DNA from: a virus
Taxonomy: Duplodnaviria; Heunggongvirae; Uroviricota; Caudoviricetes
Reading direction: 5' to 3' (one strand)
DNA: 64,000 bases
Virus record (IMG/VR): IMGVR_UViG_650377940_000003
Location: 87,323 to 151,322 of that record
Program-made: the position numbers and the translations under genes
In this document: piece by piece, positions 5,857 through 60,100 of the stretch
Position numbering within the stretch: the first letter of the stretch is position 1
Layout of the letters: each line of letters opens with the position of its first letter
The notes under the pieces: model-generated
What the model saw: only the letters and a program-made list of their open reading frames with translations
Database searches by the model: none
What the model was told of the DNA's origin: nothing

Positions 5857-5877
5857 CTATTAGAAAGGGAGATGCAG

Positions 5878-24700: not shown

Positions 24701-24961
24701 TCCTGTGTACTGGTTGGTATTATCGCAAAGATTCAAAAGAAGAAAACAAAGACTGGTATGCAGTTTGCGTTTGTGAATCTGTATTCTGGCGATGGTATCA
24801 TTGAGTTGACAGTATGGCCGAGAATCTTGTCAGATTATCAGGATTTGATTGTAAAGGGAAGTCAGGTAGCTGTGCTTGGAAAGAAGGAAGATGAATCACA
24901 CGTTATTGCAAACGACTTCAAACCTTACAAGCAGTGGCTACATGATAGAGAGATAGCGTAA
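21745..24961 (+). CDS. dnaE: DNA polymerase III alpha subunit (DnaE-type); N-terminal 12 codons (MSSSLHMHSYF) out of frame because of an extra T in T4 run 21775-21778
   Basis: PHP start HMHS.YFSLLDG split across frames; GPGRGSAAGSLVCYLIGIT palm motif; 1059-aa main ORF 21782..24961; RBS GAAAGGTGGTG before ATG 21745. Confidence 0.85.
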
Positions 24962-24973
24962 GAGGGTTATAAA

Positions 24974-27304
24974 GTGGCAGATAAGAAATTTAATGAAAAT
25001 ATGATTCGTTGCTACATCAGGATAAAACGAGTCTTTTATCCGAAAGATGGGAGGGAGGTGGAGCCCGGCGGCTTCGCCACTTTCTCTGCCGAGGTGGTAA
25101 AAGTCAAGCAGGGAAATCCTATCATGAGTCGATATAGTGACCTCCGACTGAAGGGCAATGTCCCTAGTCTTGATATGAATAAAACTTATTCGTTCTGTGG
25201 TGAGTATGTTCATCATGAAAAGTTTGGTGATCAGTACAAAATCATCTACATGAATGAGTTTCAAGAGATCACTGACCCGGAAGAACAAAAAAGCTTTCTC
25301 CGTTTTATTTTGACCGATCATCAGTTTGAGATGCTTTATGAAGCATTCGATAATCCGTATGAAGTTATCAAGAATGGTGACATCAAGGCTCTTTGTACTA
25401 TTAGCGGTATTACGGAAGGTCGAGCACAAAAGATCATTGACTCTTTTGAACGCAACATTGATAACAGTGAAGCGTACACAAAACTGATTGAGTACGGTCT
25501 GACTCCCAGTGCTATTGAAAAGCTTGTTCGTCAGTATCACGGTGCAGACATTCTGGTAAAAAAGATTGAGGAGAATCCTTACGTCCTGATTGATGATGTG
25601 TATGGTATCGGCTGGAAAAAAGCTGACGCTATTGCTTTGAATATGGGCTTAAAGCACAATTCGCAATTTAGAATCGAAGCTTACGTCATGCATTTTCTTG
25701 CCGCTCGTGCCGAAGAAGGTAACTCTATTATCCCGGCAAACCAGACAATCAATAGCTGTATTAAGGAACTTGATTTGAACGAGGGTGATCAAGAAGTCAT
25801 CAAAAGGGCACTTTTCCATTTACATGATGTCCGTGAAACGCTTTGGTGGAGTGATGACCGTCAGGAATTTGCTTTAACTAGAGTGTGGAATCTTGAAGAT
25901 AAAATCGCAAAGGAAATCAAGCGACTGGCTGATGCACCTGTTGAGCCGATTGGTCGAAACATGGATGCTGCAATCAATGAAGCCGGGAATGCGCTTGGCA
26001 TCGAGTATACTGAGGAGCAAAGAGATGCTATTAAAAAGGTATGCTCTAGCAACGTCTGTATCTTAACAGGCTACGGCGGAACTGGTAAAAGTACCGTTGT
26101 CGCTGGTGTTTTAAAGGTTCTTCGTGGCAAGTCTTTCGCTCAGACTGCACTTTCTGGTCGTGCCGCAGCTCGTATGCAGGAGATTACTGGTCAGGATGGA
26201 AAGACCATTCACCGTCTTCTTGGCTACGACATCGAGAATGGTGGTTTCATCCATAACAAGGACAATCCTCTTGAAGAAGACATTATTATTCTGGATGAGA
26301 CCTCTATGGTTGGAGCTCAGTTATTCTATGACTTGATTCAGGCAATCGAGACCGGCAAGCGATTCATCATGATTGGTGATGACGGCCAGCTTGAGAGTAT
26401 TGGTATGTGTAACATCTTCAAGGATATGCTTGCATCTAAGGTTGTTCCTGTGGCTCGTTTGACTAAGATCCATCGTCAGGCAGCTAAGTCTGCAATTATC
26501 ACGGAAAGCATTAAGGTTCGTAACGCTACGCAGTTGGTGCCTTATGGCTGGGCTGGTAGTGAGATTCGTGGTGAACTTCGTGATTTGGAGCTTGATATCT
26601 ATAAGGATGCAAGTGAGTCGTTCAACCATATCATCAATCAGTACCGTACCTTATATAATAAGGTGGGGAATGATAGTGCGAAGATTCAGATTGTACTTCC
26701 ACAGAAGCTTCGTGGCAGTATTTGCACCTACGAAGTAAACAATGCTATTCAGGAGATTGTAAATCCGAGTCGTGGTCAGGCGGAAGCAAAGGTCACTATC
26801 TATGGAGATGGCAAGGACAGAGAATATACTTTGCGTGAGGGCGATCAGGTCATCATCAACAAGAACAACTACGAGCTTCACACATACAATCTCAAGACAA
26901 AGAAAAAGGAAGAGAAGTGTCCGGTGTTCAACGGAAACCGTGGCATTATCCGAAAGATTGAGAGCAGCTTTATTCTGGTTGATTTTGACCAGTGGGGCAC
27001 GATCTTTATTCCACATTATTTTGGTGGGAATAACATCTGGGCAACGCTTGAACTTGCCTATGCTCTGAGTTGTCATAAACTGCAGGGCAGTGAGGCTCCG
27101 TATGTGATTGTTGGCATGGACAATTCTGCGTACCTGATGTTGACGAGAGAATGGCTCTATACGGCCATCACTCGTGCCAAGAAGTATTGTGTGATTTGTG
27201 CCGAAACTCATGCTCTTGATCGGGCTGCAAAGACTTCGAGAGTTCCATATAAGCGGACGTTCTTGAAGGAATTTTTACGGAAAGAATTTGCAGAAAAGCA
27301 TTGA
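24974..27304 (+). CDS. RecD/Dda-like SF1B DNA helicase with HhH region
   Basis: Motifs GYGGTGKST (I), IILDETSMV (II), IMIGDDGQLESIG (III), IHRQ (IV), VGMDNSAYLMLTREWLYTAITRAKK (VI). Confidence 0.7.
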   Translation: MADKKFNENMIRCYIRIKRVFYPKDGREVEPGGFATFSAEVVKVKQGNPIMSRYSDLRLKGNVPSLDMNKTYSFCGEYVHHEKFGDQYKIIYMNEFQEITDPEEQKSFLRFILTDHQFEMLYEAFDNPYEVIKNGDIKALCTISGITEGRAQKIIDSFERNIDNSEAYTKLIEYGLTPSAIEKLVRQYHGADILVKKIEENPYVLIDDVYGIGWKKADAIALNMGLKHNSQFRIEAYVMHFLAARAEEGNSIIPANQTINSCIKELDLNEGDQEVIKRALFHLHDVRETLWWSDDRQEFALTRVWNLEDKIAKEIKRLADAPVEPIGRNMDAAINEAGNALGIEYTEEQRDAIKKVCSSNVCILTGYGGTGKSTVVAGVLKVLRGKSFAQTALSGRAAARMQEITGQDGKTIHRLLGYDIENGGFIHNKDNPLEEDIIILDETSMVGAQLFYDLIQAIETGKRFIMIGDDGQLESIGMCNIFKDMLASKVVPVARLTKIHRQAAKSAIITESIKVRNATQLVPYGWAGSEIRGELRDLELDIYKDASESFNHIINQYRTLYNKVGNDSAKIQIVLPQKLRGSICTYEVNNAIQEIVNPSRGQAEAKVTIYGDGKDREYTLREGDQVIINKNNYELHTYNLKTKKKEEKCPVFNGNRGIIRKIESSFILVDFDQWGTIFIPHYFGGNNIWATLELAYALSCHKLQGSEAPYVIVGMDNSAYLMLTREWLYTAITRAKKYCVICAETHALDRAAKTSRVPYKRTFLKEFLRKEFAEKH

Positions 27305-27477: not shown

Positions 27478-28809
27478 ATGACAGATAAAGAGCTCATAGG
27501 TAAGCTTAATGCGATGGTTAAGGCATTGCAGAAAGCAAAGAAAAAGACGGACAAGACCCGCATTTTGTTGGATGCACGTAAGGATTTTGGAGATGAAGCT
27601 GACGAGCTAATGGCATTCTTCAAATTCCTGCTTGACCCAGCGATTGTGACTGGCCTGTCTGATGCAAAGATCAACAAGAAGGTAACGGCAAAGCCTGATA
27701 TCGATATTCAGTATCTCAGCTGCGGATACCTTTATATTATGGGTGCTGGGCATAATACTGGCTCTGATGCATCCATTGTAACAATCCAGAATTATTTACA
27801 TAAAAATCCTGAATACGAAGAGTTTCTGAAGCGACTGTTCACTAAGAACTTGCCGATTGGAGTCGAGGCAGCGACCATCAATAAAGTGTACGGCGAAGAG
27901 ATTATTCCAGTCTGGGAGGTCCAGCAGGGATATCCGATTGATAAGGTAAAGCTGAAGGATGGCATTTGGTTCAGTTTGAGCCAGAAGATGAATGGCAATA
28001 GGGGCACCATGTATAAAGGCGAGCTCATCTCTCGGCAGGCTCAGAAGTTTAAAGGGCTCGACCATATAAAGAATGATCTGCTCGCTCTATACGACGAAGA
28101 CGCCTCAAGGCGAGATGCGTGGGTGTTTGATGGTGAGCTGATCTACAAGAACCCAGAAAGAATGTCGGACGGAGAGGCTTTTCGTTATGGCACTGGCCTA
28201 CTTAATTCTGATAACAAGGACAAGACTGGAATCAAATTTGTGATTTTTGATGTGATTCCTGTTGTAGAGTTCGACCGTGGAAAGTGTACTATCCCATATA
28301 AAATTCGCCGTATTGGGTTAAATTGTCTTCGCGCAGAGATTACTCGCAAGCACCTTGAGAATATTGAAATTGTTCCAATGGTATATGAAGGTACTGACCA
28401 GAGTGTGATTCCGAAGTGGCTTGATTATGCTGTCGAACACGATTGGGAAGGTCTTATGTTGAACACGGATGTCCCTTATCGCCGGGCTCGTCACAACGGA
28501 TGTCTCAAAATCAAGCGATTCTATACGGTCGATCTGCGAATCACAGCGATTGAGGAAGGTCAGAACCGTCTGGCTGGTACGATGGGCGCTCTTGTTGTTG
28601 ACTACAAGGGTAACGAACTTCGTGTTGGTTCCGGTTTTGATGATGCTACGAGAGCTGCTGTGTGGGCGAATCCCGATAATTACATCGGTAAGATTGTGGA
28701 ATGTAAGTACAAAGAGGTCACGATGGACAAAAAGACTGGCCTTGAGTCTCTGCAATTCCCGACGTTTGTACGATTCCGAGATGATAAGAACGAAGTAAGC
28801 TACGGCTAA
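27478..28809 (+). CDS. ATP-dependent DNA ligase
   Basis: Motif I KMNGNRG, motif III FDGELI, motif IV FVIFDV, motif V EGLMLN and LKIK. Confidence 0.75.
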   Translation: MTDKELIGKLNAMVKALQKAKKKTDKTRILLDARKDFGDEADELMAFFKFLLDPAIVTGLSDAKINKKVTAKPDIDIQYLSCGYLYIMGAGHNTGSDASIVTIQNYLHKNPEYEEFLKRLFTKNLPIGVEAATINKVYGEEIIPVWEVQQGYPIDKVKLKDGIWFSLSQKMNGNRGTMYKGELISRQAQKFKGLDHIKNDLLALYDEDASRRDAWVFDGELIYKNPERMSDGEAFRYGTGLLNSDNKDKTGIKFVIFDVIPVVEFDRGKCTIPYKIRRIGLNCLRAEITRKHLENIEIVPMVYEGTDQSVIPKWLDYAVEHDWEGLMLNTDVPYRRARHNGCLKIKRFYTVDLRITAIEEGQNRLAGTMGALVVDYKGNELRVGSGFDDATRAAVWANPDNYIGKIVECKYKEVTMDKKTGLESLQFPTFVRFRDDKNEVSYG

Positions 28810-32782: not shown

Positions 32783-33484
32783 TTGATCGTCAGTGTTGGT
32801 ATTGTGTTCATTATGCTGATACTTGGTAGCGTTATCGCTGGAAATATCACCAGAGATTCACTTGAGCAGAAAAAAGAATATAATACAGCAATTTCGATTG
32901 AGTCCGAAAATATGTTCGATTATGGAATGAGAACCAACGTAGGTAATGCGTTTTGCCAAGGCGCACTAGAAGCAGTAGATACCGTAAGCGATCCACGTAT
33001 CGACGGCCAGTGGATGTACATCTATTGCGAAGAAAAGCACTATACGATGCATACACGAACTGTCACTACTACGGATGGTAAAGGCCATACAAGAACAAGA
33101 GTCGAAACGTACTGGACTTGGGACTATTACAGCTCAGAAGAGCACAGTTCCAAAAATGTAACGTTTCTGGGAAAAGAATTTAAGTATGGTGACATCAAAA
33201 TGCCATCCAGCAAGTACCTGACCACTGTACAAGTCAGTTCTCATGTAAAGTTCGAGTTTTATGTCAAAGATGTTCGTTATGGTGGTACATTATACGCGAA
33301 TTTGAGCGATAAAAGTATACATGATGCACAATTCATTAAGGATAAAAACATCGAAGAAGCACGAGATTATATGATTTCTGCAGCTGGTACACGAGTGATT
33401 TGGTTTTGGGTATTCTGGGTCGTATTGATGGTAGTTGCGGTTGGAGCTTTCTATGTGGCAGAAAATCGTTGGTTGGAAGATTAA
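32783..33484 (+). CDS. membrane protein partner of LemA (two terminal TM segments)
   Basis: Hydrophobic N- and C-termini; start codon uncertain (TTG 32783 or downstream ATG). Confidence 0.3.
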   Translation: MIVSVGIVFIMLILGSVIAGNITRDSLEQKKEYNTAISIESENMFDYGMRTNVGNAFCQGALEAVDTVSDPRIDGQWMYIYCEEKHYTMHTRTVTTTDGKGHTRTRVETYWTWDYYSSEEHSSKNVTFLGKEFKYGDIKMPSSKYLTTVQVSSHVKFEFYVKDVRYGGTLYANLSDKSIHDAQFIKDKNIEEARDYMISAAGTRVIWFWVFWVVLMVVAVGAFYVAENRWLED

Positions 33485-33495
33485 GGAGTGATTGC

Positions 33496-35691
33496 ATGGA
33501 ATATGTGATTAAACGCGATGGAACGAAAGTTCCTTTTGATAAAAGTAAGATTGTAAATGCGATTGAGAAGGCAATGACGAATACGACTGGAGGAGTTGAT
33601 TCTCGCGTATCTAACGCTATTGCAGACTACATCGCGGACATCCATGATACGATGTCTGTAGAGCAGATTCAGGATGTGGTTATTGACCAGTTGAAAAATA
33701 GCCCTCTTTCGGATGTGGCTGACGCTTATAGTCACTGGCGTATTCTTCGGCAGGAGATTCGTGAGAAACAGCGAGCGTATGGCGAAATTCTTTCCATCTG
33801 TGATGTAGACAATGAGAAGGTCAAGCAGGAAAACAGCAACAAAAATCCTGTTGTGAATAGCGTGCAGCGTGACTATATGGCTGGCGAGGTTTCCAAAGAT
33901 CTGAGCTTCAATCTGCTTCTCCCGAAAGATATTGTGGACGCTCACTATGATGGCCGAATTCATTTTCACGATTCCGACTATTTTGCCCAGCACATGTTTA
34001 ACTGCTCGCTAGTCAATCTGGAAGACATGCTTCAAAACGGCACTGTGATTTCTGGCACTGGAATCGACAAACCACATAGTTTCTCTACAGCGTGCAATAT
34101 TGCAACCCAGATTATTGCACAGGTTGCTTCCAACCAATATGGTGGTCAGAGTATTACTCTGTCTCATTTGGCTCCTTTCGTGGACGTCTCTCGAAAGAAG
34201 ATTACGGGTGAAGTCCATGAGGAGTTTTACGACATGATTCAAAACAATGAGATTGACAAGATGCCAAATCAGGAGACTATCAATCGAATTGTAGAGAAGC
34301 GTTTACATAAAGAAATCGTTGCAGGCGTTCAGACTATTCAGTATCAGGTTATTACTTTGATGACCACTAACGGGCAAGCTCCTTTTATTACTATTTTTAT
34401 GTATCTGGATGAAGTTCCTGAAGGCCAGACCCGTGATGACCTTGCAATTATCATTGAAGAAGTCCTTCGTCAGCGTATTAAAGGCGTGAAGAATGAGACT
34501 GGTGCATGGATTACTCCGGCTTTCCCAAAGCTGATTTATGTGCTGGAAGAAGATAACATTCGAGATAATTCTAAGTATTACTATCTGACTGAACTGGCAG
34601 CTAAATGTACGGCCAAGAGATTTGTACCTGACTACATTTCTGAGAAGAAGATGTTGGAGTACAAAGGTGCTTGCTACCCCTGTATGGGATGTCGCAGCTT
34701 CTTGACTCCTGATCGAACCACCGAGAATGTTTCTGGTGCCATGAATTGGGAGAAGGGCCACAAGTACTATGGTCGCTTTAATGCCGGTGTTGTCACCATC
34801 AATCTGGTAGATGTTGCTTGTAGCTCTAAGAAGGATGTTTCTGAGTTTTGGGAAATTTTTGATGAGCGTCTTGAACTGTGCCATCGAGCACTTCAGATTC
34901 GGTATAAGCGATTGATGGGTACGCCTTCTGATGTGAGTCCAATTCATTTTCAGCATGGTGCAATCGCACGTTTGAAGAAGGGCGAGAAGATTGATAAATT
35001 GCTGTTTGACGGATATGCAACCATCAGTTTAGGTTACGCAGGTCTGTATGAATGCGTAAAGTACATGACCGGTAAGAGCCATACCGATGATGAAGCAAAA
35101 CCTTTTGCTCTTGAGATTATGCAGCACATGAACGACAAGTGCAGTGAGTGGAAGGCAGCAGAAAATATTGATTATAGTCTTTACGGCACCCCGCTGGAAT
35201 CCACCACCTACAAGTTTGCCAAGTGCCTGCAAAAGCGCTTTGGCATCATTCCAGATGTAACAGACCATGATTACATCACCAACAGTTATCATGTCGTGGT
35301 TCGTGAGCATATTGATGCATTCAAGAAGCTGAAGTTTGAGTCTGAGTTTCAGCAGCTGTCTCCAGGAGGAGCGATTTCTTATATTGAATGCCCGAACATG
35401 ACCAACAACATCCCCGCTGTGATGAGTGTCATCAAATACATCTACGACACTATTATCTACGCAGAGCTGAACATCAAGTCTGATTATTGTCAGGTTTGTG
35501 GTTATGACGGCGAGATTAAGATTGTTGAAGATAACGGCAAGCTCGTTTGGGAATGCCCGAACTGTGGTAATCGTGACCAGAATAAACTGAATGTCGCCCG
35601 TCGCACCTGCGGATTTATTGGCACTCAGTTCTGGAATCAGGGTCGCACTCAGGAAATTCGAGATCGAGTAGTTCACCTGAGCGATAACTAA
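33496..35691 (+). CDS. nrdD: anaerobic ribonucleoside-triphosphate reductase NrdD (class III RNR)
   Basis: ATP-cone start MEYVIKRDGTKVPFD; C-terminal zinc ribbon CQVCGY..CPNCG and glycyl-radical motif RRTCGFIG. Confidence 0.85.
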   Translation: MEYVIKRDGTKVPFDKSKIVNAIEKAMTNTTGGVDSRVSNAIADYIADIHDTMSVEQIQDVVIDQLKNSPLSDVADAYSHWRILRQEIREKQRAYGEILSICDVDNEKVKQENSNKNPVVNSVQRDYMAGEVSKDLSFNLLLPKDIVDAHYDGRIHFHDSDYFAQHMFNCSLVNLEDMLQNGTVISGTGIDKPHSFSTACNIATQIIAQVASNQYGGQSITLSHLAPFVDVSRKKITGEVHEEFYDMIQNNEIDKMPNQETINRIVEKRLHKEIVAGVQTIQYQVITLMTTNGQAPFITIFMYLDEVPEGQTRDDLAIIIEEVLRQRIKGVKNETGAWITPAFPKLIYVLEEDNIRDNSKYYYLTELAAKCTAKRFVPDYISEKKMLEYKGACYPCMGCRSFLTPDRTTENVSGAMNWEKGHKYYGRFNAGVVTINLVDVACSSKKDVSEFWEIFDERLELCHRALQIRYKRLMGTPSDVSPIHFQHGAIARLKKGEKIDKLLFDGYATISLGYAGLYECVKYMTGKSHTDDEAKPFALEIMQHMNDKCSEWKAAENIDYSLYGTPLESTTYKFAKCLQKRFGIIPDVTDHDYITNSYHVVVREHIDAFKKLKFESEFQQLSPGGAISYIECPNMTNNIPAVMSVIKYIYDTIIYAELNIKSDYCQVCGYDGEIKIVEDNGKLVWECPNCGNRDQNKLNVARRTCGFIGTQFWNQGRTQEIRDRVVHLSDN

Positions 35692-46985: not shown

Positions 46986-47058
46986 AATCAGAGCTTTGGT
47001 GTGGTATACTTATAGTGTCACATCAAGGCTCTTTATAATAAATGTAAGGAGTCTATTT

Positions 47059-48216
47059 ATGGAAAGACGTAAAGATAGTAAAGGTAAAGTCTTAAAAGAC
47101 GGCGAAAGCCAAAGAAAGGATGGAATATATCAATATCGATGGACTGATAAAACTGGAAAACGTCACACAATTTATGCGAAAGATTTAAAAGTTCTTCGAG
47201 AAAAAGAAAATAATGCTAACAAAATAATTTCTCAAGGGATAGATTTTGAAGGCGGTAAAATAACAACATATCAGTTTCTTATAAGATATTATGAATTTAA
47301 GAAAACATCAATAAAGAAATCGAGTTTGAAGACATATTATACAACGACAAACAAGTTGAAGGATACGTCTATCGGTAATACAAAAATTATTGACGTAAAG
47401 ATTTCAGACGCAAAACAACTGATTATTGATTTGAGCCAGAATGGATTGAAATACAGTACAATAAAAACTATAAAAACACTGATAAAAGCTGCATTTAAAA
47501 TGGCTCAAGAAGATGATTTAATTTTAAAGAATCCGTTTGATTTTCAGCTGAATGAAGTTATAAAAAACGACACTAAAAAAAGAGTCGCATTAACCGAACA
47601 ACAGTATTCTGATTTGCTTGAATTCGTTTTATGTGATCGAGTCTTTCGTAAGTATTATGATGACATCGTATTTTTGTATGAAACTGGAATTCGCGTAAGT
47701 GAATTTTGTGGATTAACACTTTCGGACATTGATTTTGTGAAACATGAAGTTGTAATTGATAAACAACTCATCAAAACCTCAAAAGGAGAACTCTACATCA
47801 CAGATCCAAAATCAAAAGCTGGGTTTCGGACGATTCCATTGAGCGCTGAGGCATATCACGCGATTAAAGCCATTATCAATCGTCGGCCACAAACAAACGA
47901 GATGATGGTCGATGGCTATTGTGGTTTCATCTCAATTCATTCAAATGGAACCCCGAAGACCGCTTGGAACATTGAATATGAGCTAAGAGAAATTGCAAAG
48001 GCGTATAACAGTCTTTACCCAGAGTGCCAATTACCAAATCTCACACCTCACGTTCTTCGACACACTTTTTGTACCAGAAAAGTTAGCAGCGGCATGAACA
48101 TCAAGGCAGTTCAATATCTAATGGGGCATAGCTCAGTACAAATTACACTCGATGTATACACGTCAATCGACGCTGATATGATAAAAACTGAATTCGCAAA
48201 AGTGGCACAGATGTGA
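47059..48216 (+). CDS. int: tyrosine recombinase/integrase (Tn916 Int-like)
   Basis: HVLRHTFCTR (HxxR) and LMGHSSVQITLDVYTS (catalytic Y); RBS TAAGGAG; marks the right prophage end. Confidence 0.85.
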   Translation: MERRKDSKGKVLKDGESQRKDGIYQYRWTDKTGKRHTIYAKDLKVLREKENNANKIISQGIDFEGGKITTYQFLIRYYEFKKTSIKKSSLKTYYTTTNKLKDTSIGNTKIIDVKISDAKQLIIDLSQNGLKYSTIKTIKTLIKAAFKMAQEDDLILKNPFDFQLNEVIKNDTKKRVALTEQQYSDLLEFVLCDRVFRKYYDDIVFLYETGIRVSEFCGLTLSDIDFVKHEVVIDKQLIKTSKGELYITDPKSKAGFRTIPLSAEAYHAIKAIINRRPQTNEMMVDGYCGFISIHSNGTPKTAWNIEYELREIAKAYNSLYPECQLPNLTPHVLRHTFCTRKVSSGMNIKAVQYLMGHSSVQITLDVYTSIDADMIKTEFAKVAQM

Positions 48217-51820: not shown

Positions 51821-51848
51821 TATGCAATTATAAACAAACAGCCGCCCA

Positions 51849-51886
51849 GCGACCTTACGGTCAACTGCTGGGCGGCTGTTGTTGTA
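51849..51886. repeat. hairpin repeat copy 1 (CAGCCGCCCAGCGACCTTACGGTC...GCTGGGCGGCTG), bidirectional terminator
   Basis: Near-identical to copy at 52331-52376. Confidence 0.6.
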
Positions 51887-51893
51887 CTTATAC

Positions 51894-52271
51894 TTACGCC
51901 AGATGGAGTTTCTCTTTCAGCGCATCCTGAAGGACGCCGGAAAAGTTGATGTGTGCCGATTCGGCGGCATCGTTGAGCCAACCGGGAATGGAAAGGGTTT
52001 TCTTTACGGGTCTGTACCGCTTTTCGTACTCTTCCATATCGAAGGGCACCATCACCACAAAATCTTCCGGGTCAACATGGAGTGCAGAAGGGACAGAAGG
52101 CTCCGGGCAGACTTTGCAATCTTCCAGCATAAGGCCGATGGCATCCTGTGCCATGCGGACAGCTTCGTCCATGGTATCGCCTTGGGTGAAGCAGCCCTCA
52201 ATATCGGGGATCTCAACAGAGTACCCGGTTTCTTCCGGGTGAAAAATTGCAGGATAGAAAATAGCGTTCAT
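51894..52271 (-). CDS. hicB: HicB-family antitoxin (RNase H-like fold + RHH DNA-binding tail), orphan
   Basis: YPAIFHPEETGYSVEIPDIEGCFTQGDTMDEAVRMAQDAI HicB signature; C-terminal RHH-like segment; own promoter TTGACA-17-TATGAT with TACGTA repeats; no hicA ORF found. Confidence 0.6.
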   Translation of the reverse strand: MNAIFYPAIFHPEETGYSVEIPDIEGCFTQGDTMDEAVRMAQDAIGLMLEDCKVCPEPSVPSALHVDPEDFVVMVPFDMEEYEKRYRPVKKTLSIPGWLNDAAESAHINFSGVLQDALKEKLHLA

Positions 52272-52330
52272 AATGTGACCTCATTTATTGTATCATATAC
52301 GTATTTTACGTATTTGTCAAGAGGGCAAAA

Positions 52331-52376
52331 ACAGCCGCCCAGCGACCTTACGGTCTCGCTGGGCGGCTTATTTTTT
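52331..52376. repeat. hairpin repeat copy 2 followed by T tract (terminator)
   Basis: AGCCGCCCAGCGACCTTACGGTCTCGCTGGGCGGCTTATTTTTTG. Confidence 0.6.
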
Positions 52377-52670
52377 GCGTTTCCACAACAGATATTCTTC
52401 GTAGCGGTGCATCTCGTTCTGTTCTTCTTCGGTCAGGCGCTGGCGCTGTTTGCGGGCTTCGTCCGAGGGGTCGATGTCGGTCAGGCCCAGCAGGTAGTCG
52501 GCGGAGGTGCCGTAGAGCTTGCAGATGGCAAGCAACACATCGCTGGGTGGCGAATTGCGTCCCTGCTCCCAAGCGCTGACAGCCCAAACGGTAAGCCCTA
52601 GCTTATCCGCAAGGCTTTTTTGTGTGTCATGGTAGTTCTTTCGAATCTCTGCCAGTCGCTCTCCAAGCAT
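52368..52670 (-). CDS. XRE-family HTH transcriptional regulator
   Basis: MLGERLAEIRKNYHDTQKSLADKLGLTVWAVSAWEQG Cro/C1-type HTH; RBS AGGAAAGGTGG; upstream ACTAGTATA operator-like repeats (52690-52812). Confidence 0.65.
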   Translation of the reverse strand: MLGERLAEIRKNYHDTQKSLADKLGLTVWAVSAWEQGRNSPPSDVLLAICKLYGTSADYLLGLTDIDPSDEARKQRQRLTEEEQNEMHRYEEYLLWKRKK

Positions 52671-52845
52671 TATCAATACCACCTTTCCTGTTACTAGTAT
52701 AGGGAATTCTACTAGTTTTTGACGAAAGACGCACTTAAAATGCTGGACATGGTACAAACAAGTAGTTATAATGCTAGTATAAGGCAGAACTAGTATAAAA
52801 ATACTACTTCTGCCGCAACGCTAAGGCAAAGCGAGGAATACCCCG

Positions 52846-54861
52846 TTGGAACAACTGATCGACTTTCACGCACCGGAAGTGCAGGCGGTGCTGGATACAC
52901 TTCTAAAAGACCGCTCCACCGGTAAAAACATCATCTGGGCCACCGACCCGCCGGAGGAACTGCAAACGGTGATGTACGAACCTGTCACGGATAAATCCCA
53001 GATCACCACCCAGCAGCTCGGGCTGACCCACTACGAGGTGGTGCTGCCCCGGATGATGAAGCAGACCGACACCCAGCAGCAGCGCACCCGCAAAAAAGGC
53101 GAGGTGTTCAGCCCCGCATGGGTCTGCAACAAGATGAACAATGCACTGGATGCCGACTGGTTCCGTGGGCTGGGGGCAGGGGAGACCGCCGGGCAGTTCA
53201 CGGTGGAACTGCCCCAAGGCTGGCAGACGGTGGAAACGCCGGTGCGGTTCCCAGCTTGCGGGGGCAGGACCCCGGCATGGGTGCAGTATGTGCAGAGCCG
53301 CCGCTTGGAGGTGACCTGCGGCGAAGCCCCCTTTCTGGCGTCTCGGTACGATGCCGCCACCGGCGAGATGATCCCGGTAGCCCGGCGCATTGGCATTTTG
53401 GACCGCAAGCTGCGTGTGGTAAGCGAGAACGCCGCCACAGAGGACGAGTGGCGCAAATATGCCACCCATGCGGTGCAGTCCACCTACGGCTACGAGTATC
53501 AGGGTGATAACCTTTTGCTGGCGAGGGTCAACCTGCTGCTGACCTATGCAGAGCATCTGCAAGCCCGCTGGCAGCGCAAACCCACAAAAGAAGAGTTACA
53601 GCCTATCGCCAACATCATCAGCTGGAACCTGTGGCAGATGGACGGCTTGCACCTCTCTGTGCCCGGCGGCAAGCCCCAGCCGGAGACAGAACAGCTTGAC
53701 CTCTTTTCCATGTTCGGGGCGGCAGAGCCGCAGCTGCCCACGGTATCCTGTAAAGTGAAAAACTGGCGCAAGGGCAGCCATGGAACCGCCCAGAACTTTG
53801 AAACCATTCAGGAAGGGAGTACCAGCATGAAGTTTGATTATGTCATCGGAAACCCGCCGTATCAGGATGAAACCCTTGGCGATAACAAAGGCTTTGCACC
53901 GCCAGTATATAACAAATTTCTGGATGCGTCTTATGAAATTGCGGATAAGGTGGAAATGATTCACCCTGCACGGTTTTTGTTCAATGCTGGCTCTACGCCA
54001 AAAGCATGGAATGAGAAAATGCTGAGTGACCCGCACTTTAAGGTTTTGCACTATGAAGCTGATGCAAGCTCGATTTTCCCGAATACTGACATTAAAGGAG
54101 GAGTGGTTGTTTCATATAGGGATAGCTGTTCGGATTTTGGCGCAATCGGAGTGTTTACTAAATATGCAAAACTGAATGCGATTCTCCATAAGGTCACAGA
54201 AACGGCTGATTTTATTTCGTTAAGCAATATTGTGGTGACGAGAACAGCATATAGATTGACCGACAAAATGCACGAGGATCATCCAGAAGCAATCGGTCAG
54301 TTGAGCAAGGGTCATGCTTACGATATGGCAACAAATATATTTGACCGATTGCCACAAATATTTTTTGATGCGAAGCCAACAGATGGAAACGATTATATCC
54401 GAATATTAGGACGAACAAACAATGAACGTGCATATAAGTATGTGAGAAGGGATTATGTCAACAAGGTGAAAAACCTTGATAAATTCAAGCTGTTTATTCC
54501 GAAAGCAAATGGAATAGGTGCGTTTGGAGAAGTAATATCGTCACCAATCACGGCAACACCCGGAGTTGGTTCAACTGAAACATTTCTGAGCATTGGTATC
54601 CTAGACTCCGAGTATGAGATGGGTGCAGCATTAAAATACATAAAAACAAAATTTGCACGGGCATTATTAGGTGTTTTGAAAACTACACAAGATATTACAC
54701 CAGACAAATGGAAATACGTTCCCCTTCAAGATTTTACCGCCCATTCCGACATTGATTGGAGCAAGTCGGTGGCGGAAATCGACCAGCAGCTTTACCGCAA
54801 GTATGACCTGACTGCGGACGAGATCGAATTTATCGAGACCCATGTAAAGGAGATGGCATAA
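52846..54861 (+). CDS. gamma-class N6-adenine DNA methyltransferase (Eco57I/TaqI-like) with C-terminal TRD
   Basis: Motif X GEVFSPAWV near N-terminus, motif IV FDYVIGNPPYQ; stop overlaps start of next gene (TAATG). Confidence 0.7.
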   Translation: MEQLIDFHAPEVQAVLDTLLKDRSTGKNIIWATDPPEELQTVMYEPVTDKSQITTQQLGLTHYEVVLPRMMKQTDTQQQRTRKKGEVFSPAWVCNKMNNALDADWFRGLGAGETAGQFTVELPQGWQTVETPVRFPACGGRTPAWVQYVQSRRLEVTCGEAPFLASRYDAATGEMIPVARRIGILDRKLRVVSENAATEDEWRKYATHAVQSTYGYEYQGDNLLLARVNLLLTYAEHLQARWQRKPTKEELQPIANIISWNLWQMDGLHLSVPGGKPQPETEQLDLFSMFGAAEPQLPTVSCKVKNWRKGSHGTAQNFETIQEGSTSMKFDYVIGNPPYQDETLGDNKGFAPPVYNKFLDASYEIADKVEMIHPARFLFNAGSTPKAWNEKMLSDPHFKVLHYEADASSIFPNTDIKGGVVVSYRDSCSDFGAIGVFTKYAKLNAILHKVTETADFISLSNIVVTRTAYRLTDKMHEDHPEAIGQLSKGHAYDMATNIFDRLPQIFFDAKPTDGNDYIRILGRTNNERAYKYVRRDYVNKVKNLDKFKLFIPKANGIGAFGEVISSPITATPGVGSTETFLSIGILDSEYEMGAALKYIKTKFARALLGVLKTTQDITPDKWKYVPLQDFTAHSDIDWSKSVAEIDQQLYRKYDLTADEIEFIETHVKEMA

Positions 54862-57800
54862 TGGCTGGCATAACCCTGCGCACTGCCCGGCAGGTGGTGC
54901 CCATGATCTACGCCTATACCACCCCGGAAATTGCCCGGCACAACGGCTGGACGAAGATCGGCTACACCGAGCAGTCGGTGGACAAACGCCTGAAACAGCA
55001 GACTCACACCGCCGATGTGCTGTTCCATGAGGAGTGGCGGGGCAATGCCGTCTACGATGACGGCAGCGGCGAGGTGTTCACTGACCACGATTTCCACGCC
55101 TACCTCCGCAAGCTGAATGTGGAGAACGACCGCAAAAATGAGTGGTTCCATCTGGATGGACAGCAGTCCCGGCGGTATTTTCAGGATTTCCGCATGAACC
55201 GGGGTAGGGTGCAGCTGGATGCCGCCATCGCCTACACCCTGCGGGAAGAACAGGAAAGGGCTGTCCGCGACACCAAAACCTATTACCAGAGCCACCCCGG
55301 CGGGGAATACCTCTGGAACGCCAAGCCCCGCTTTGGCAAGACCCTCTCCGTCTACGACTTCTGCAAGCAGGTCGATGCACAGACGGTGCTCATCGTCACC
55401 AACCGCCCTGCCATCGCCAACAGCTGGTACAGCGACTATGTGCGCTTTCTGGGCAGGGAGTCCGGCTATCTGTTCGTCAGTCATGTGGATGCCCTTGCCG
55501 GGCAGCCCCATGTGCTGGACGAGCAAGGCTATCTGGATGCCGCCGCACAGGGCGAGGAACTGTATAAGCGCATTGAGTTCGTCAGCTTGCAGGACATGAA
55601 AGGCTCCAAGTATTTCGGCGGCGAGTACGACAAGCTGCGCCACCTGACCGAGCTGAACTGGGATGTGCTGGTCATCGACGAAGCCCACGAGGGCGTGGAC
55701 ACCTACAAGACCGACCTTGCCTTTGACCGCATCCGCCACAAGTTCACGCTGCACCTGTCCGGCACGCCCTTCAAGGCACTGGCGAACGACAAGTTTGCCG
55801 GGGATGCCATCTTCAACTGGACTTACGCCGACGAGCAGGCCGCCAAGCGGAACTGGCAGGGCGCACCGGGGCAGCAGAATCCCTACGCAAACCTCCCTAT
55901 GCTCAACCTCTACACCTACCAGATGTCCGAGATCATCCGGGACGAGATCCGGCAGGGCGTGGAGATCGACGGCGAAACGCAGGAATTTGCCTTTGACCTG
56001 AACGAATTCTTCAAGGTGAAGTCGGGCGGCAGCTTTGAGCACGAAGCCGAGGTAGACCGCTTTCTGGATGCCATGACCACCCAGAACAAATTTCCGTTTT
56101 CCACCCCGGAACTGCGTGCCGAACTGAAGCACACCTTCTGGCTGCTGAACCGGGTGGACAGCGCCAGAGCGCTGGCGAAAAAGCTGCAGGCGCACCCGGT
56201 ATTCCGGGACTACGAGGTGATCCTTGCCGCCGGTGACGGCAAGCTGGACGACACGGACGAGAACCAGAAGAGCTTTGACCGGGTAAAAGCCGCCATCGCC
56301 CACCACGAAAAGACCATCACCCTGTCGGTGGGGCAGCTGACCACCGGTGTCACCATCCCGGAGTGGTCGGCGGTGCTGATGCTCTCCAACCTGAAAAGCC
56401 CGGCACTGTATATGCAGGCAGCGTTCCGTGCCCAGAACCCCTGCCTTTTCCACGAAAACGGCACCTTCCGCCGCAAAGAGAACGCCTATGTGTTCGATTT
56501 TGACCCCGCCCGCACCCTGCTGATCTACGAGCAGTTCGCCAACGATCTTTCACAGGACACCGCCAGCGGCAAGGGCGACACCGAGGAGCGCAAGGCGCAC
56601 ATTCAGAATCTGCTCAACTTCTTCCCGGTCATCGGCGAGGACGAGGAAGGGGAGATGATCCCGCTGGATGCAGAAAAAGTCCTCAGCATCCCCCGGAAGA
56701 TCAAGTCCAAGGAAGTGGTGCGGATGGGCTTCCAGAGCAACTTCCTGTTCCAGAACATTTCCAACGTGTTCAGTGCCCCGCAGGAGGTGCTGGACATTCT
56801 GCAAAACTTCCAGCCCATCAGCGAGGCAAAGGCAAAGCCCATCCAGATCACCCCGGAGACCGGCGCAGACCTCTCCCTGAACGACAAGGGCGAGGTGGAT
56901 TTGGACGAGGGCTACGTCATCGGCAAGGCAGCGGATGTGTTCGGGGAGAAGATCTACGAAAGCACCCCGGCACTGGACACCGCCCTGCAAGACCTGACCG
57001 ATGCCCCGGCTCCTGCCAAAGAAGAGCATCTGGAACCACTGAAAAAGAGCATCACCAAGGAAATCATCACCCCTATGGTGGAACAGGCAAAGCAGGAGTA
57101 TGGTCGGGACCTGAAGCTGTCCGACCAGAAGCGGTTCGAGAGCACCGCCAAAGCCAAGATGGACGTGGCGGTGAACAAGGTGGTGGACAACTACCGCATC
57201 GACCAGAGCCAGCTGGAGACCCAGCGCACCCAGCAGCTGCAAAGCTGCGCCACCGCCCAGCAGCGCCAGCAGGTGAACCGGGAGTTTGACGCAAAGCAGC
57301 AGCAGAGCACCGCCGCCCTGATGGAAAACCTGCAATCCACCATCCAGCAGACGGCGCAGGAAATGCAGCAGACCATCGTGCGCACCGTGGAGACCAACCA
57401 GAAGGAGCAGGAGAAAAAGGGCTACGAGGACACCGTCCGTGACCATCTCCGGGGCTTTTCCCGCACCATCCCGTCCTTCCTCATGGCCTACGGCGACGAG
57501 ACCGTGACACTGGCGAATTTTGACCGGATCATCCCGGACAAGGTCTTTCAGGAGGTCACCAGCATCACGCTGGAGCAGTTCCGTTTTTTGCGGGACGGCG
57601 GGCCGTACATCAACCAGACCACTGGACAGGAGGAGCATTTTGCAGGCCACCTGTTCGACCCGGTGGTGTTTGACGATTCGGTGAAGGAGTTTTTGAACCT
57701 GAAGGTCAAACTGGCGGATTACTTTGACGAGAGCCGCACCGAGGATATCTTCGATTACATCCCGCCCCAGAAAACCAACCAGATCTTTACCCCCAAGTGG

Positions 57801-58169
57801 GTGGTGAAAAAGATGGTGGACCTGCTGGAGCAGGAAAACCCCGGCTGCTTCGATGACCCCGGCAAGACCTTCCTGGACCCCTACATGAAGTCCGGTCTGT
57901 ACATTACGGAAATCGTCAAGCGCCTTTACCGCAGCGAGAAGATGCGGCAGGCTTTCCCGGACGATAACGCCCGGCTGGAACATATCTTTGCCAAGCAGGT
58001 CTATGGGCTTGCCCCGACAGAGATCATTTACCGCATTGCCATCAGCTACATTCTGGGTTTTGCAAAGGATCACGGCATCACCGCCCACCATATCCGTCAG
58101 GCGGATACGCTGGAATTTGCCAAGGCGGGCACCATGGAAAGGGAACTGGATAAGATTTTCAGAGACTGA
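54861..58169 (+). CDS. GIY-YIG-like nuclease + SF2 (DEAH) helicase fusion with Q-rich linker and C-terminal MTase-N-lobe-like segment
   Basis: N-terminal MIYAYT...KIGYT (GIY-YIG-like); helicase motifs NAKPRFGKT (I), VIDEAHEG (II), LSGTPF (III), TTGVTIPE and QAAFRAQN (V/VI); C-terminal IFTPKWVVKKMVDLL...FLDPYMKSG resembling MTase motifs X/I. Confidence 0.6.
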   Translation: MAGITLRTARQVVPMIYAYTTPEIARHNGWTKIGYTEQSVDKRLKQQTHTADVLFHEEWRGNAVYDDGSGEVFTDHDFHAYLRKLNVENDRKNEWFHLDGQQSRRYFQDFRMNRGRVQLDAAIAYTLREEQERAVRDTKTYYQSHPGGEYLWNAKPRFGKTLSVYDFCKQVDAQTVLIVTNRPAIANSWYSDYVRFLGRESGYLFVSHVDALAGQPHVLDEQGYLDAAAQGEELYKRIEFVSLQDMKGSKYFGGEYDKLRHLTELNWDVLVIDEAHEGVDTYKTDLAFDRIRHKFTLHLSGTPFKALANDKFAGDAIFNWTYADEQAAKRNWQGAPGQQNPYANLPMLNLYTYQMSEIIRDEIRQGVEIDGETQEFAFDLNEFFKVKSGGSFEHEAEVDRFLDAMTTQNKFPFSTPELRAELKHTFWLLNRVDSARALAKKLQAHPVFRDYEVILAAGDGKLDDTDENQKSFDRVKAAIAHHEKTITLSVGQLTTGVTIPEWSAVLMLSNLKSPALYMQAAFRAQNPCLFHENGTFRRKENAYVFDFDPARTLLIYEQFANDLSQDTASGKGDTEERKAHIQNLLNFFPVIGEDEEGEMIPLDAEKVLSIPRKIKSKEVVRMGFQSNFLFQNISNVFSAPQEVLDILQNFQPISEAKAKPIQITPETGADLSLNDKGEVDLDEGYVIGKAADVFGEKIYESTPALDTALQDLTDAPAPAKEEHLEPLKKSITKEIITPMVEQAKQEYGRDLKLSDQKRFESTAKAKMDVAVNKVVDNYRIDQSQLETQRTQQLQSCATAQQRQQVNREFDAKQQQSTAALMENLQSTIQQTAQEMQQTIVRTVETNQKEQEKKGYEDTVRDHLRGFSRTIPSFLMAYGDETVTLANFDRIIPDKVFQEVTSITLEQFRFLRDGGPYINQTTGQEEHFAGHLFDPVVFDDSVKEFLNLKVKLADYFDESRTEDIFDYIPPQKTNQIFTPKWVVKKMVDLLEQENPGCFDDPGKTFLDPYMKSGLYITEIVKRLYRSEKMRQAFPDDNARLEHIFAKQVYGLAPTEIIYRIAISYILGFAKDHGITAHHIRQADTLEFAKAGTMERELDKIFRD

Positions 58170-58312: not shown

Positions 58313-60100
58313 TCATGTTTCCAATGGTTTTTTGATGGTGGACTTGGTTTCGATCCCTTGCTTGCGCATCTTTGTATCATTGGTGTTTTTTTGAACCGAG
58401 CAGATACTGGATTTCAAGATACGATTGTAGAAGTCCATTGCCATGATATTCGTCCGCTCATTTATATCAATCGTGGACTTTCCAGCATATCGCTGAGCGA
58501 TATTCCGTGCGGTATAAAACATTGATGTTTCATAAATTTTAAGTTTGCTGGCGAAATCTTTTCCATTGCACCGTGAATTTAGGCTGTCTTCAAGAGGAAT
58601 CAAATTCCCAATAATGCCATTTTCAGGGGAATTTGTATCATCCAAGATATGTTCGATCGTGAAGGCAGCACACTGCTTACTGGCACATTTGTATCGTTCA
58701 AGGACTTCCAAAACAACTTGCACACGTTCCTTGTTTCGGTCATCGTCGTAATACCCAGCGTGATGTGACCACCCTAAATTGGAGAATGCTTTGAGAAAGA
58801 CTTCTTTGCTGGGAAGTTTATTCTTTAACTCTGAGATAAAGCATTCCAATGCGGAGTCGGAGTAGTGGTTTTCGAGAATACTGGAATTTTTGTAAATCGC
58901 ATTTGTTATTTTGTTCGAATTTTCTTGTCCAATAATGGTATAGCAGATGAAAAAATCATAGAGAAACAGAAGGGTCTCCTCGTACTTCTCTTGGCTGAGG
59001 TGACCGAGTTCATATTGATGAATTAGACTTAAAAGGATAGGACGAATTTGTTCTTGCCGATGCTTTTTGAAAAAAGCATACACTTTAAATTCAACATTCG
59101 AACAGTTTGCAGATTCCTCAGATTGAGAAGGAGAAAGAAGGCGGTTGTAGTAGATGGACTTCTGATAAATATCGTCAAGAAGCGGAACAGTTGGAATGCC
59201 TTTGTTGGAATCACGAATGAGTTTATAATCGCTGATACCTTCCTGAACAGAGGTTCTATATTTGTGGGTTGCATAATGTTTTACAAAGCGTTCGATGTTG
59301 TTACCTAAAAGCGATTCGATCTCCGACCAAGTGGTTTTCGCAGTGTCGACATCTCCATCGGGTCTAATGCCTCTTAGAATAAAGTTCTTTAATAGTTCAT
59401 GCCCTTCCAATGCTGAGCCGCGAGCGTTTAAAATCTCAAAAATCGTGTACGCATCTTCCTCGGAAGATGCGGTAATATCAACATATAGCAGATTGTCCGT
59501 TATGGCGGTTCGTAAATTGAGTAGGACTTGAATTGGGGAAAGAGTAGATTCTTCAATATGTTTATAGATGCTGTTTATGAAAAACACAAAGGCAGCTGCG
59601 AGATTCTTGTTGTTTTGAGAAAACTGCTTTACAAGTGCTGCGGTTTCAAAACGCTTTGCCATATTTGGAGAAATTGAAAAGAGTCCAGTAATAATTCGCT
59701 CTAGTGCAATATATTGCTCAGACTTGATGACCATGGCTTCCTGATTTAAATCGTCACGAGTGAACAAATACTGCTTTGTTCCTCGAAATTCGTCGTCAAA
59801 TTCATAGCAATGAAGGCAAAAGGCTACACTTGCAAGAAAAATTGTTAGGGAAATAATTCGTTGTTGACCATCTACAATTGTAAAATATGAGATGCCGTTT
59901 TTGCGGTCGTTCTCTTTGTAAAGAACGATACTTCCGATGAAGTGGGTTGCTTCTTTTCCGGTAGCAACGAGCAAGACATCATCAAATAACTCTTGCCAGT
60001 TTCTTTTGTTCCATACATACTGTCGCTGGTTTCGGGGCGTTCCATAACAACGCTTGGTGAAAAGGTCGTAGACGTGTTTGTCATCTGCTTCAAAACTCAA
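58313..60100 (-). CDS. GmrSD-like Type IV (modification-dependent) restriction endonuclease, DUF262 + DUF1524
   Basis: N-terminal ParB-like DGQQR motif (TIVDGQQRIISL); C-terminal HNH-like EHILD...N...PLEDSLNSRCNG; low GC (about 40%) inside high-GC island. Confidence 0.7.
   Translation of the reverse strand: MSFEADDKHVYDLFTKRCYGTPRNQRQYVWNKRNWQELFDDVLLVATGKEATHFIGSIVLYKENDRKNGISYFTIVDGQQRIISLTIFLASVAFCLHCYEFDDEFRGTKQYLFTRDDLNQEAMVIKSEQYIALERIITGLFSISPNMAKRFETAALVKQFSQNNKNLAAAFVFFINSIYKHIEESTLSPIQVLLNLRTAITDNLLYVDITASSEEDAYTIFEILNARGSALEGHELLKNFILRGIRPDGDVDTAKTTWSEIESLLGNNIERFVKHYATHKYRTSVQEGISDYKLIRDSNKGIPTVPLLDDIYQKSIYYNRLLSPSQSEESANCSNVEFKVYAFFKKHRQEQIRPILLSLIHQYELGHLSQEKYEETLLFLYDFFICYTIIGQENSNKITNAIYKNSSILENHYSDSALECFISELKNKLPSKEVFLKAFSNLGWSHHAGYYDDDRNKERVQVVLEVLERYKCASKQCAAFTIEHILDDTNSPENGIIGNLIPLEDSLNSRCNGKDFASKLKIYETSMFYTARNIAQRYAGKSTIDINERTNIMAMDFYNRILKSSICSVQKNTNDTKMRKQGIETKSTIKKPLET

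Follow-up and report, generated by a model that had tools for sequence, protein, structure and literature searches.

How can an adenine methylase be formed when the two lobes of its catalytic domain appear to belong to two different proteins? This question is raised by a pair of genes found at positions 52846-58169 of a stretch of 64,000 nucleotides (nt) of viral DNA (Caudoviricetes; IMG/VR virus record IMGVR_UViG_650377940_000003, positions 87,323 to 151,322), which we call the window and whose positions are counted from its first letter. An earlier note, made from the letters of the window, had described this pair as a split Type ISP-like restriction system, in which the first gene would encode a methylase and the second one a nuclease-helicase ending with a vestigial methylase lobe. 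The two open reading frames (ORFs), their TAATG overlap and all the motifs quoted in that note were indeed located there. The first ORF, P1 (52846..54861, + strand), encodes 671 amino acids (aa) from a TTG start, and near-identical 671-aa proteins are present in a public collection; the second ORF, P2 (54861..58169, + strand), encodes 1102 aa. At the junction, GCATAATGGCT, the stop codon TAA of P1 (54859-54861) and the start codon ATG of P2 (54861-54863) have one base in common. Read from the sequence, this TAATG overlap (54859..54863, + strand) would couple the translation of the two genes.

P1 and P2 look like a restriction-modification (R-M) system, a kind already known, in a layout that is new; they do not look like a new kind of system. 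The sequences, one structural model and analogy with characterised enzymes lead us to favour, as reasonably probable, a Type ISP-like ATP-dependent R-M system in which the C-terminal lobe of P2 and the C-terminal module of P1 (P1C) would assemble in trans into one unit made of a methylase and a target recognition domain (TRD). The results computed here which bear on this answer are the domain composition of the two proteins, their collinearity with fused relatives, the predicted fold of one such relative, triad conservation and the hypervariability of the TRD.

The lobe of P2 and its counterpart in P1

According to its Pfam matches, P2 is made of a nuclease domain, a superfamily 2 (SF2) helicase, a helical linker and the N-lobe of a methylase. 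The earlier note had seen at its N-terminus a GIY-YIG-like nuclease in place of the usual Mrr/PD-(D/E)xK nuclease, and this is borne out: taken alone, the N-terminal 130 aa match PF10544 (T5orf172) with 29.9 bits (cut-off 20) and PF13455 (MUG113) with 32.4 bits (cut-off 22.3), both above the gathering scores, and no PD-(D/E)xK family was matched in the Pfam scan of the N-terminus. T5orf172 (PMC8263062) and MUG113 belong to the GIY-YIG superfamily. The domain (aa 16-105; 54906..55175, + strand) includes most of the motif MIYAYT (aa 15-20) and the whole of KIGYT (aa 32-36), and its residues Y17/Y19, K32-I-G34, R43 and E94 are invariant or nearly so in the whole family. Judging from the Pfam matches and from these conserved residues, the N-terminus of P2 belongs to the T5orf172 branch of the GIY-YIG superfamily.

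The SF2 helicase or translocase core (aa 125-560; 55233..56540, + strand), also reported in the earlier note, is matched by ResIII PF04851 (aa 125-304, E=5e-10) and by the DNA helicase family phrog_16 (E=2e-25). Its four motifs, namely AKPRFGKT (Walker A, aa 154-161; 55320-55343), DEAH (aa 273-276; 55677-55688), SGTP (aa 300-303; 55758-55769) and QAAFRAQN (aa 519-526; 56415-56438), all on the + strand, are invariant among the relatives, and the catalytic motifs are all conserved in relatives which are 60-99% identical. The core is followed by a Q-rich and poorly conserved linker (about aa 735-850; 57063..57410, + strand), predicted to be helical: the equivalent region of a modelled relative, P0404 (see below), forms two long helices (residues 240-282 and 286-350).

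The last part of P2 (P2C, aa 864-1102; 57450..58166, + strand) consists of a conserved helical region followed by what we take, from the Pfam N6_Mtase match and from the fused relatives, to be a methylase N-lobe. Motif X (IFTPKWVV, aa 975-982; 57783-57806), motif I (FLDPYMKSG, aa 1004-1012; 57870-57896), strand beta2 (VYGLAPTE, 57999-58022) and motif III (IRQADTLEF, 58092-58118), all on the + strand, can be read in it. The C-terminal 182 aa match positions 26-128 only of the N6_Mtase profile, that is, the part which precedes motif IV (E=0.019), and, in agreement with this, two other methylase models are weakly matched at their N-terminal ends by the P2 tail. P2 stops just short of the position where motif IV is expected, and NPPY is absent from the whole protein. 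This agrees with the earlier note, where the tail was said to resemble the first lobe of an N6-adenine methylase lacking NPPY.

What is missing from P2 is found at the beginning of P1C (aa 328-671; 53827..54858, + strand), which starts with MKFDYVIGNPPYQ and contains motif IV (NPPY, aa 336-339; 53851-53862), the C-lobe of the methylase, the TRD and a conserved tail. NPPY is invariant, like the catalytic-type residues of P2. Where the relative of P2 is about 66% identical, P1C is a separate gene of about 345 aa which starts exactly at MKFD..GNPPY; on the Eco57I profile, this short upstream gene begins at position 73, which corresponds to the same motif.

The correspondence between the two lobes is clearest in relatives where both belong to a single chain. 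In 34 of the 37 representative relatives of at least 1250 aa, the P2-like region runs directly into the P1C-like region (KFD..GNPPY), with NPPY typically about 90-110 aa past the conserved motif I DxYxKSG. The join is seamless: in the relative P0314, the end of P2 aligns to residue 1101 and Met328 of P1 to residue 1104. In the window, the 96 aa from D1006 to the end of P2 and the 8 aa from Met328 to Asn336 add up to 104 aa, and the same distance in the fused P0404 is 102 aa. The PADLOC profile REase_MTase_IIG, to whose positions 999-1359 P1C aligns, is continuous over both lobes in fused relatives (residues 958-1423 of P0334 match profile positions 872-1359, E=1e-113).

We made an AF2 model of P0404, a fused relative of 917 aa truncated at its N-terminus, from an alignment of 68 sequences. 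This model (pLDDT 91.6, pTM 0.81) displays the two long linker helices, then a single seven-stranded Rossmann methylase, then the TRD; three strands come from the N-lobe (485-487, 526-530, 555-557) and four from the C-lobe (585-588, 618-624, 648-654, 670-676). In a Foldseek search with this model, the best match was CamA (E=7e-12), and BrxX/PglX, LlaBIII and LlaGI (E ~2e-9 to 1e-7), DrdV and M.BseCI were also found. Hence, in single-chain relatives, the P2-type lobe is the native N-lobe partner of P1C, as far as sequences and this model can tell.

The earlier note had considered the lobe of P2 as a vestigial docking stub. This is probably not the case: the lobe is collinear with P1C in most of the long relatives, no residue being missing or added, and the aspartate of motif I (D1006), K1010-S-G and the aspartate of motif III (D1082) are invariant in split and fused members alike. 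These invariant residues speak against a decaying remnant.

The assembly in trans, the methylation and the ATP-driven restriction or cleavage which we infer would proceed in the following way. Three modules would be distributed over two translationally coupled proteins. P2 would supply the T5orf172 nuclease, the SF2 translocase, the helical linker and the N-lobe, binding S-adenosylmethionine (AdoMet), of a gamma-class N6-adenine methylase (motifs X, I, II and III), and P1 would supply the matching C-lobe (from motif IV onward), the hypervariable TRD and the conserved tail. By pairing in trans, the lobes would form one methylase-TRD unit, and the specificity subunit would in this way be tied to the motor and the nuclease. 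The mode of action can be proposed from that of Type ISP and Type I enzymes. On the host DNA, the adenine of an asymmetric site recognised by this unit would be methylated, a self-protection by N6-methyladenine (m6A). Where the site is unmethylated, ATP hydrolysis by the helicase would drive translocation, and cleavage would be the work of the GIY-YIG nuclease.

The two modules of P1 and the variable TRD

P1 was presented in the earlier note as a gamma-class N6-adenine methylase with a TRD. The motifs and the match to Eco57I PF07669 (aa 315-411, E=1.6e-16 in Pfam) agree with this description, but P1 is not a single methylase gene: from sequence comparison, it is a fusion of two modules, P1N and P1C, which are separate genes in most relatives. 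The PADLOC profile MTase_II PDLC03390 spans aa 13-309 (E=2e-84) and a different profile, PDLC03375, spans aa 327-670 (E=2e-37), and these boundaries mirror the division.

P1N (aa 1-308; 52846..53769, + strand), whose counterpart in relatives is a separate gene of about 309 aa, would be a paralog of the methylase N-lobe. One can read in it motif X (GEVFSPAWV, aa 85-93; 53098-53124), motif I (LEVTCGEAPFL, 53305-53337), motif II/III (YGYEYQGDNLLLARVNLL, 53485-53538) and the sequence WQMDGL (53632-53649), all on the + strand; it has no NPPY of its own. When the P1N family was compared by hhalign with the N-lobe of the fused methylases, the probability was 89.7% (E=1.9e-6), from motif X through motif II. 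Broader alignments were required for this kind of comparison, as with narrow ones the P2 tail was aligned to P1N in the region of motif X alone, with a probability of 33%. Among small homologs of P1N, one (L090) is above the Pfam N6_Mtase threshold, for profile positions 23-121 only, and a distant one has a sub-threshold MmeI_Mtase match (19.8 bits, cut-off 27). The small forms display canonical motifs (GEVFTP, FLEPSxGEGAFL, LYGIEL) and lack NPPY. The linker between P1N and P1C (aa 309-327; 53770..53826, + strand), poorly conserved in our alignment A4, is equivalent to the intergenic spacer of the split forms, which measures 4-253 nt, mostly 30-65 nt, where the two genes are separate and adjacent.

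We counted gene orders over the 55 loci with sufficient upstream sequence. A P1C-like gene lies 5' of P2 in all of them and ends about 45 nt or less from the start of P2 in 54, as a rule with an overlap or an abutment; the ORF upstream of P2 shares 1-4 nt with its start, or ends at most 2 nt from it, in most related loci. The pair co-occurs in hundreds of genomes, and the overlap or abutment of stop and start is kept, so that the conservation which the earlier note had proposed to look for does exist. P1N is present 5' of P2 in 53 loci: it is fused to P1C in 20, separate and adjacent in 20, and split from it by an inserted gene in 13 (hence separate in 33/53). A small gene of 227-308 aa which matches the P1N profile overlaps or abuts the start of the large gene in all five fused relatives whose contigs were retrieved. 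Both plasmid records inspected have a small gene (248-306 aa) in the same place, assigned to P1N by its position, one of the two being annotated 'N-6 DNA methylase'. By sequence, P1N is thus an extra paralogous N-lobe, which is kept as a small gene alongside large proteins whose own methylase domain is complete, and the arrangements are three: [P1N][P1C][P2], [P1N-P1C][P2] as in the window, and [P1N][P2-P1C]. Since P1C can be fused to either N-lobe, a contact of P1C with both lobes is suggested.

The genes inserted between P1N and P1C (L002:7801-8967, L033-L035, L040, L076, L077) encode a DUF1016/YhcG PD-(D/E)xK nuclease, PIN-domain toxins, or nucleotidyltransferase (MNT)-HEPN pairs with uncharacterised 283-378 aa proteins. 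Such insertions recall the accessory genes which Type I R-M operons can harbour.

P1N may be regulatory, or it may be a second partner for the C-lobe. The latter idea can be extended into a scheme which we put forward tentatively and consider unlikely: the canonical P1N and the non-canonical P2 lobe would compete for, or alternate on, one P1C. P1N:P1C would then be a modification-only methylase and P2-lobe:P1C a restriction-competent complex acting at the same site. A single specificity module would serve both activities, the exchange of lobes would set the balance between modification and restriction, and the three architectures would be alternative wirings of the same exchange.

Could P1 be a self-sufficient methylase with its TRD, the P2 lobe being catalytically dead and serving only to dock the helicase-nuclease on P1, in line with the earlier note? 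We regard this as a possibility to be taken seriously, albeit a doubtful one. The fusion of P1N with P1C in 20 of 53 loci is in its favour, as are the canonical motifs I and II of P1N, which the small homologs also carry (FLEPSxGEGAFL, LYGIEL), the fact that PGAP calls these homologs 'N-6 DNA methylase', and the lysine which replaces the glycine of motif I in the P2 lobe, where the acid of motif II is absent as well. It is difficult to reconcile with the long relatives, where the P2-type lobe and not P1N is contiguous with P1C at canonical spacing and one Rossmann domain is seen in the model, or with the fact that P1N stays a separate gene in fused systems (5/5 metagenome loci, both plasmid records). 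Moreover, a docking stub would not need the invariant D1006, K1010-S-G and D1082.

Several points weigh nonetheless against the assembly in trans that we favour. In the P2 lobe, motif I departs from the norm (YMKSG, K taking the place of the usual glycine) and beta2 does not end with an acid (GLAPTE); the binding of AdoMet by this lobe is therefore not assured. The motifs I and II of P1N are more canonical (CGEAP; YGYEY), and in the window P1N and P1C form one covalent chain. For P1 itself, AF2 gave a poor model (pLDDT 60.4, pTM 0.43, low confidence at all the methylase motifs) which, built from 18 sequences of 51-97% identity, was discarded. No sequence relationship could be detected between the helicase of P2 and LlaBIII or LlaGI. 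Finally, the analogous three-gene cluster of B. subtilis, DnmA-YeeB-YeeC, showed neither restriction nor anti-phage activity (PMC9973331). P1 alone could be the working methylase, and the P2 lobe a docking piece only.

The most variable part of the system is the TRD (about aa 396-598; 54030..54637, + strand), which we delimited from the break in nucleotide identity with Faecalibacterium loci. This identity is lost at about 53865-54124 and comes back at about 54628-54845, the flanks being 90-97% identical. At the protein level, P1N is 95-97% and P2 98-99% identical between these loci and the window, and P1C merely 31-68%; the extreme case is L006 (P1N 96.5%, P1C 31%, P2 98.7%). The loss and recovery of identity mean that a replaceable TRD cassette lies between the conserved motif IV region and the conserved C-terminal tail of P1C (WKYVPLQDFT ... 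LYRKYDLTADEIEFIE ... KEMA; 54709..54858, + strand). In alignment A4 this tail is retained even when the TRD is replaced, and a tail of identical type ends the fused relatives. From these sequences, P1C would act like a specificity subunit, as a turnover of the TRD between near-identical strains is typical of such subunits. A repeat scan around the operon gave neither silent TRD cassettes nor shufflon-type inverted repeats.

This turnover also bears on an explanation which does without restriction. P1 and P2 might be in the service of a mobile element, as an anti-restriction device which protects or establishes incoming DNA, the T5orf172 domain being a DNA-binding module and not a nuclease. Integrative mobilisable elements do carry the family, as do plasmids that are conjugative or mobilisable, and a relaxase-like gene lies nearby in the window (its Mob_Pre match is sub-threshold, 21.2 bits for a cut-off of 25.5). 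A phage satellite is said to tune phage gene expression with a domesticated endonuclease, according to the title of a paper in which T5orf172 is mentioned (PMC8096241). We find this explanation improbable. A TRD hypervariable between near-identical strains is what restriction specificity subunits typically have, neither the GIY-YIG-type catalytic positions nor the helicase motifs vary, and the neighbours are defence genes, toxin-antitoxin and nuclease genes being gathered at the P1N|P1C junction.

Relation to known systems and distribution

The closest known systems in organisation are the Type ISP enzymes LlaGI and LlaBIII. The fused relatives have the same order of modules, namely nuclease, SF2 ATPase, gamma-class N6-adenine methylase and TRD; the modelled methylase-TRD of P0404 matches LlaBIII (4XQK) and LlaGI (5FFJ) with the E-values given above; and both kinds of systems occur on plasmids of lactic acid bacteria. 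In the window, the succession of a gamma-class methylase and a TRD would be obtained only if the P2 lobe and P1C are taken together, as sequence and model suggest. The differences are the following: the system of the window is carried by two polypeptides with the break inside the methylase domain, whereas LlaGI and LlaBIII are single chains; the nuclease is T5orf172/GIY-YIG here and Mrr/PD-(D/E)xK there; and there is an extra N-lobe paralog, P1N, here (53/55 loci). By sequence comparison, using phmmer or a family profile, the helicase of P2 did not match the LlaBIII and LlaGI chains of the PDB; the profile of full-length P2 gave weak matches to the N-terminal part of UvrB only, and sequence searches of the PDB with P1, with P2 and with profiles of the P2 tail and of P1N gave none. 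Because the helicase shows no sequence relationship to theirs and the nuclease is of a different family, we call the system Type ISP-like in organisation and do not count it as a member of the family. The split Type ISP-like reading of the earlier note thus stands as regards domain content, dozens of fused collinear relatives and the structural matches; for the helicase, no sequence match to LlaBIII or LlaGI was seen.

Another system with the same three activities, a methylase-TRD, an SF2 helicase and a T5orf172 protein, is DnmA(YeeA)-YeeB-YeeC, in which, by contrast, the three proteins are separate and the methylase is complete and MmeI-like, whereas here one protein unites nuclease and helicase and the methylase is divided (YeeB and YeeC were compared by their descriptions). 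P1 has no MmeI_* match in Pfam. Morgan et al. predicted in 2009 that this cluster is a Type I-like system with single-strand modification (PMC2731913), and, according to PMC9973331, the deletion of homologs of these genes in Vibrio crassostreae raised the sensitivity to some phages. For the B. subtilis cluster, whose lack of a phenotype is mentioned above, it has been proposed that only an orphan epigenetic methylase activity is left, and P1 and P2 might likewise be an inactive relic. This is the explanation we find least credible: both ORFs are intact, the 90%-identity cluster of P2 homologs has 21,636 member sequences, the catalytic motifs are conserved in relatives 60-99% identical, and gene order and translational coupling are kept. 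With intact ORFs, catalytic motifs that do not vary, a TRD that turns over and defence genes as neighbours, both a relic and a service to mobile elements are less likely than the R-M system we favour.

Sisakova et al. mention in passing that Type ISP/Type IIL relatives exist with helicase subunits and GIY-YIG nucleases (PMC3553950). Direct homologs, belonging to the same family as the system of the window, are for instance the single-chain T5orf172-helicase-methylase-TRD proteins of plasmid pRS5 (NC_012031.1) and of an Enterococcus plasmid (NZ_CP077321.1). P2 is 45-48% identical to their N-terminal 1100 aa; they differ in that P1C continues the P2-type protein beyond its end and is not joined to P1N. 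We found no publication on these plasmid proteins, which are annotated just as 'Eco57I restriction-modification methylase domain-containing protein'.

The gamma-class methylase-plus-TRD fold is shared with Type IIG/IIL enzymes (Eco57I family, MmeI, DrdV), with BREX PglX/BrxX and with the orphan methylase CamA, but in these the methylase domain is continuous and a helicase motor is lacking. A Type IIG (Eco57I-like) assignment does not hold either, as there is a full SF2 motor and there are two chains here, and REase_MTase_IIG is strong for the methylase/TRD part only. Nor is this a Type I R-M system: there are no matches to HsdS or HsdM families, and the sole NCBIfam Type I match has 13 bits for a cut-off of 729. 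BREX, DISARM and other named defence systems were rejected, as PADLOC gave no specific matches to them. PADLOC returned generic methylase and Type IIG matches only, NCBIfam had no match at or near its cut-offs for P1 or P2, and we found no paper on the family, on a split inside the methylase domain or on the extra N-lobe protein; the earlier note had recognised no named R-M subtype or defence system either.

The PADLOC matches fall on the two halves of P1 and are weak and partial on P2. With tools of this kind, the operon would probably be logged as an orphan Type II methylase and P2 would be missed. Of the defence-type operons of the human gut that are still uncharacterised, this family is one of the more abundant. 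If the methylase is really assembled in trans, this would be a natural DNA methylase whose catalytic domain is split between a motor-nuclease subunit and a specificity subunit, and it would show a route from single-chain restriction enzymes to multi-subunit ones. A separate specificity module with a swappable TRD cassette could serve engineering, and the methylation motif matters for the genetic manipulation of Faecalibacterium, which is hard to transform.

In a scan of one genome per species, 491 stretches matched P2, the closest (98-99%) belonging to Faecalibacterium prausnitzii and its relatives, which puts the family in at least 491 species genomes, and an exhaustive profile search with P2 retrieved 3711 representative proteins at E<=1e-3. 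A profile search started from P1 gave nearly all close relatives and added little diversity. The family was found in Faecalibacterium, Lachnospiraceae and Bifidobacterium, and on plasmids of Enterococcus (33 records), Lactococcus, Pediococcus, Lactiplantibacillus and Bifidobacterium; these plasmid relatives were seen by protein-level search, as a megablast of the operon against plasmids gave no match. In databases, the members bear generic names only, either 'DEAD/DEAH box helicase family protein' or 'Eco57I restriction-modification methylase domain-containing protein'.

Homologs of P2 about 60-64% identical occur in bins of distant phyla: a Methanocorpusculum metagenome-assembled genome (MAG), which is archaeal (L082), two Bacteroidota MAGs (L044, L049), an Alphaproteobacteria MAG (L080) and Gastranaerophilales (L033, L084). 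They reflect either very recent horizontal transfer on mobile elements or contamination in the binning. A close relative of 1381 aa, P0284, equals P2 in length up to about residue 1098 and then has an extra C-terminal domain of about 250 aa, matched by the PADLOC candidate PDC-S61 (E=3e-97) and by a PD-(D/E)xK model. P0284 is without P1C, and this domain would be a second nuclease added after the methylase N-lobe.

Surroundings of the operon

The pair is bracketed by a promoter-like site 5' of P1 (TGGACA-17-TATAAT, 52744..52772, + strand, 11/12 consensus positions) and a terminator-like hairpin 3' of P2 (58211..58228, + strand), both being consensus matches only. The defence island announced in the earlier note is confirmed for GmrSD and HicB. 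The gene of the Type IV restriction enzyme GmrSD (58313-60100, - strand) is the 3' neighbour of P2 and is common to only one of the fetched Faecalibacterium loci (L013); the gene of the antitoxin HicB (51894-52271, - strand) lies near P1. The identification of the upstream neighbour as DUF2971 was not retained, as its match is sub-threshold (E=0.017, 16.9 bits for a cut-off of 22). The hicB gene lies between two perfect 27-bp direct repeats (51836-51862 and 52329-52355), both within sequences able to form a hairpin, and resembles an inserted cassette.

A gene of the XRE family of helix-turn-helix (HTH) proteins (52368-52757, - strand), whose true start is probably an internal ATG, is divergent from P1. 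The intergenic region contains repeated CTAGTATAA units and, by the promoter-like site, a GGCAGAA/TTCTGCC inverted repeat. This may be a controller-protein arrangement; in L001, an HTH and Peptidase_M78 pair occupies the same place. Directly 3' of the system, two loci whose P2 is 66-72% identical have a SIR2_2 and DUF87/HerA pair of the SIR2-HerA defence type (L001:13534-16547, L002:13573-16381), followed in L002 by Type III CRISPR genes.

From 48.8 to 64 kb, the window is 88-97% identical in nucleotides to Faecalibacterium loci, the neighbouring groEL included. The preceding part (1-48216) is of another nature: its first 46 kb or so have about 40% GC, versus 52-58% in the Faecalibacterium-like part, and the large ORFs found in it (at least 330 aa), all on the + strand, form a large phage replication module. 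This module has genes for Pnkp/RNA ligase (5872-8091), a DNA methyltransferase (9901-11256), DnaB (15901-17424), RecJ (18453-20195), DNA polymerase (21782-24961), ExoV/Dda (24974-27304), DNA ligase (27478-28809) and NrdD (33400-35691). A Tn916-type integrase (46996-48216) adjoining groES/groEL marks its end, and the phage-like part could be a prophage, or an element, which inserted itself next to groESL, or it could reflect an assembly join.

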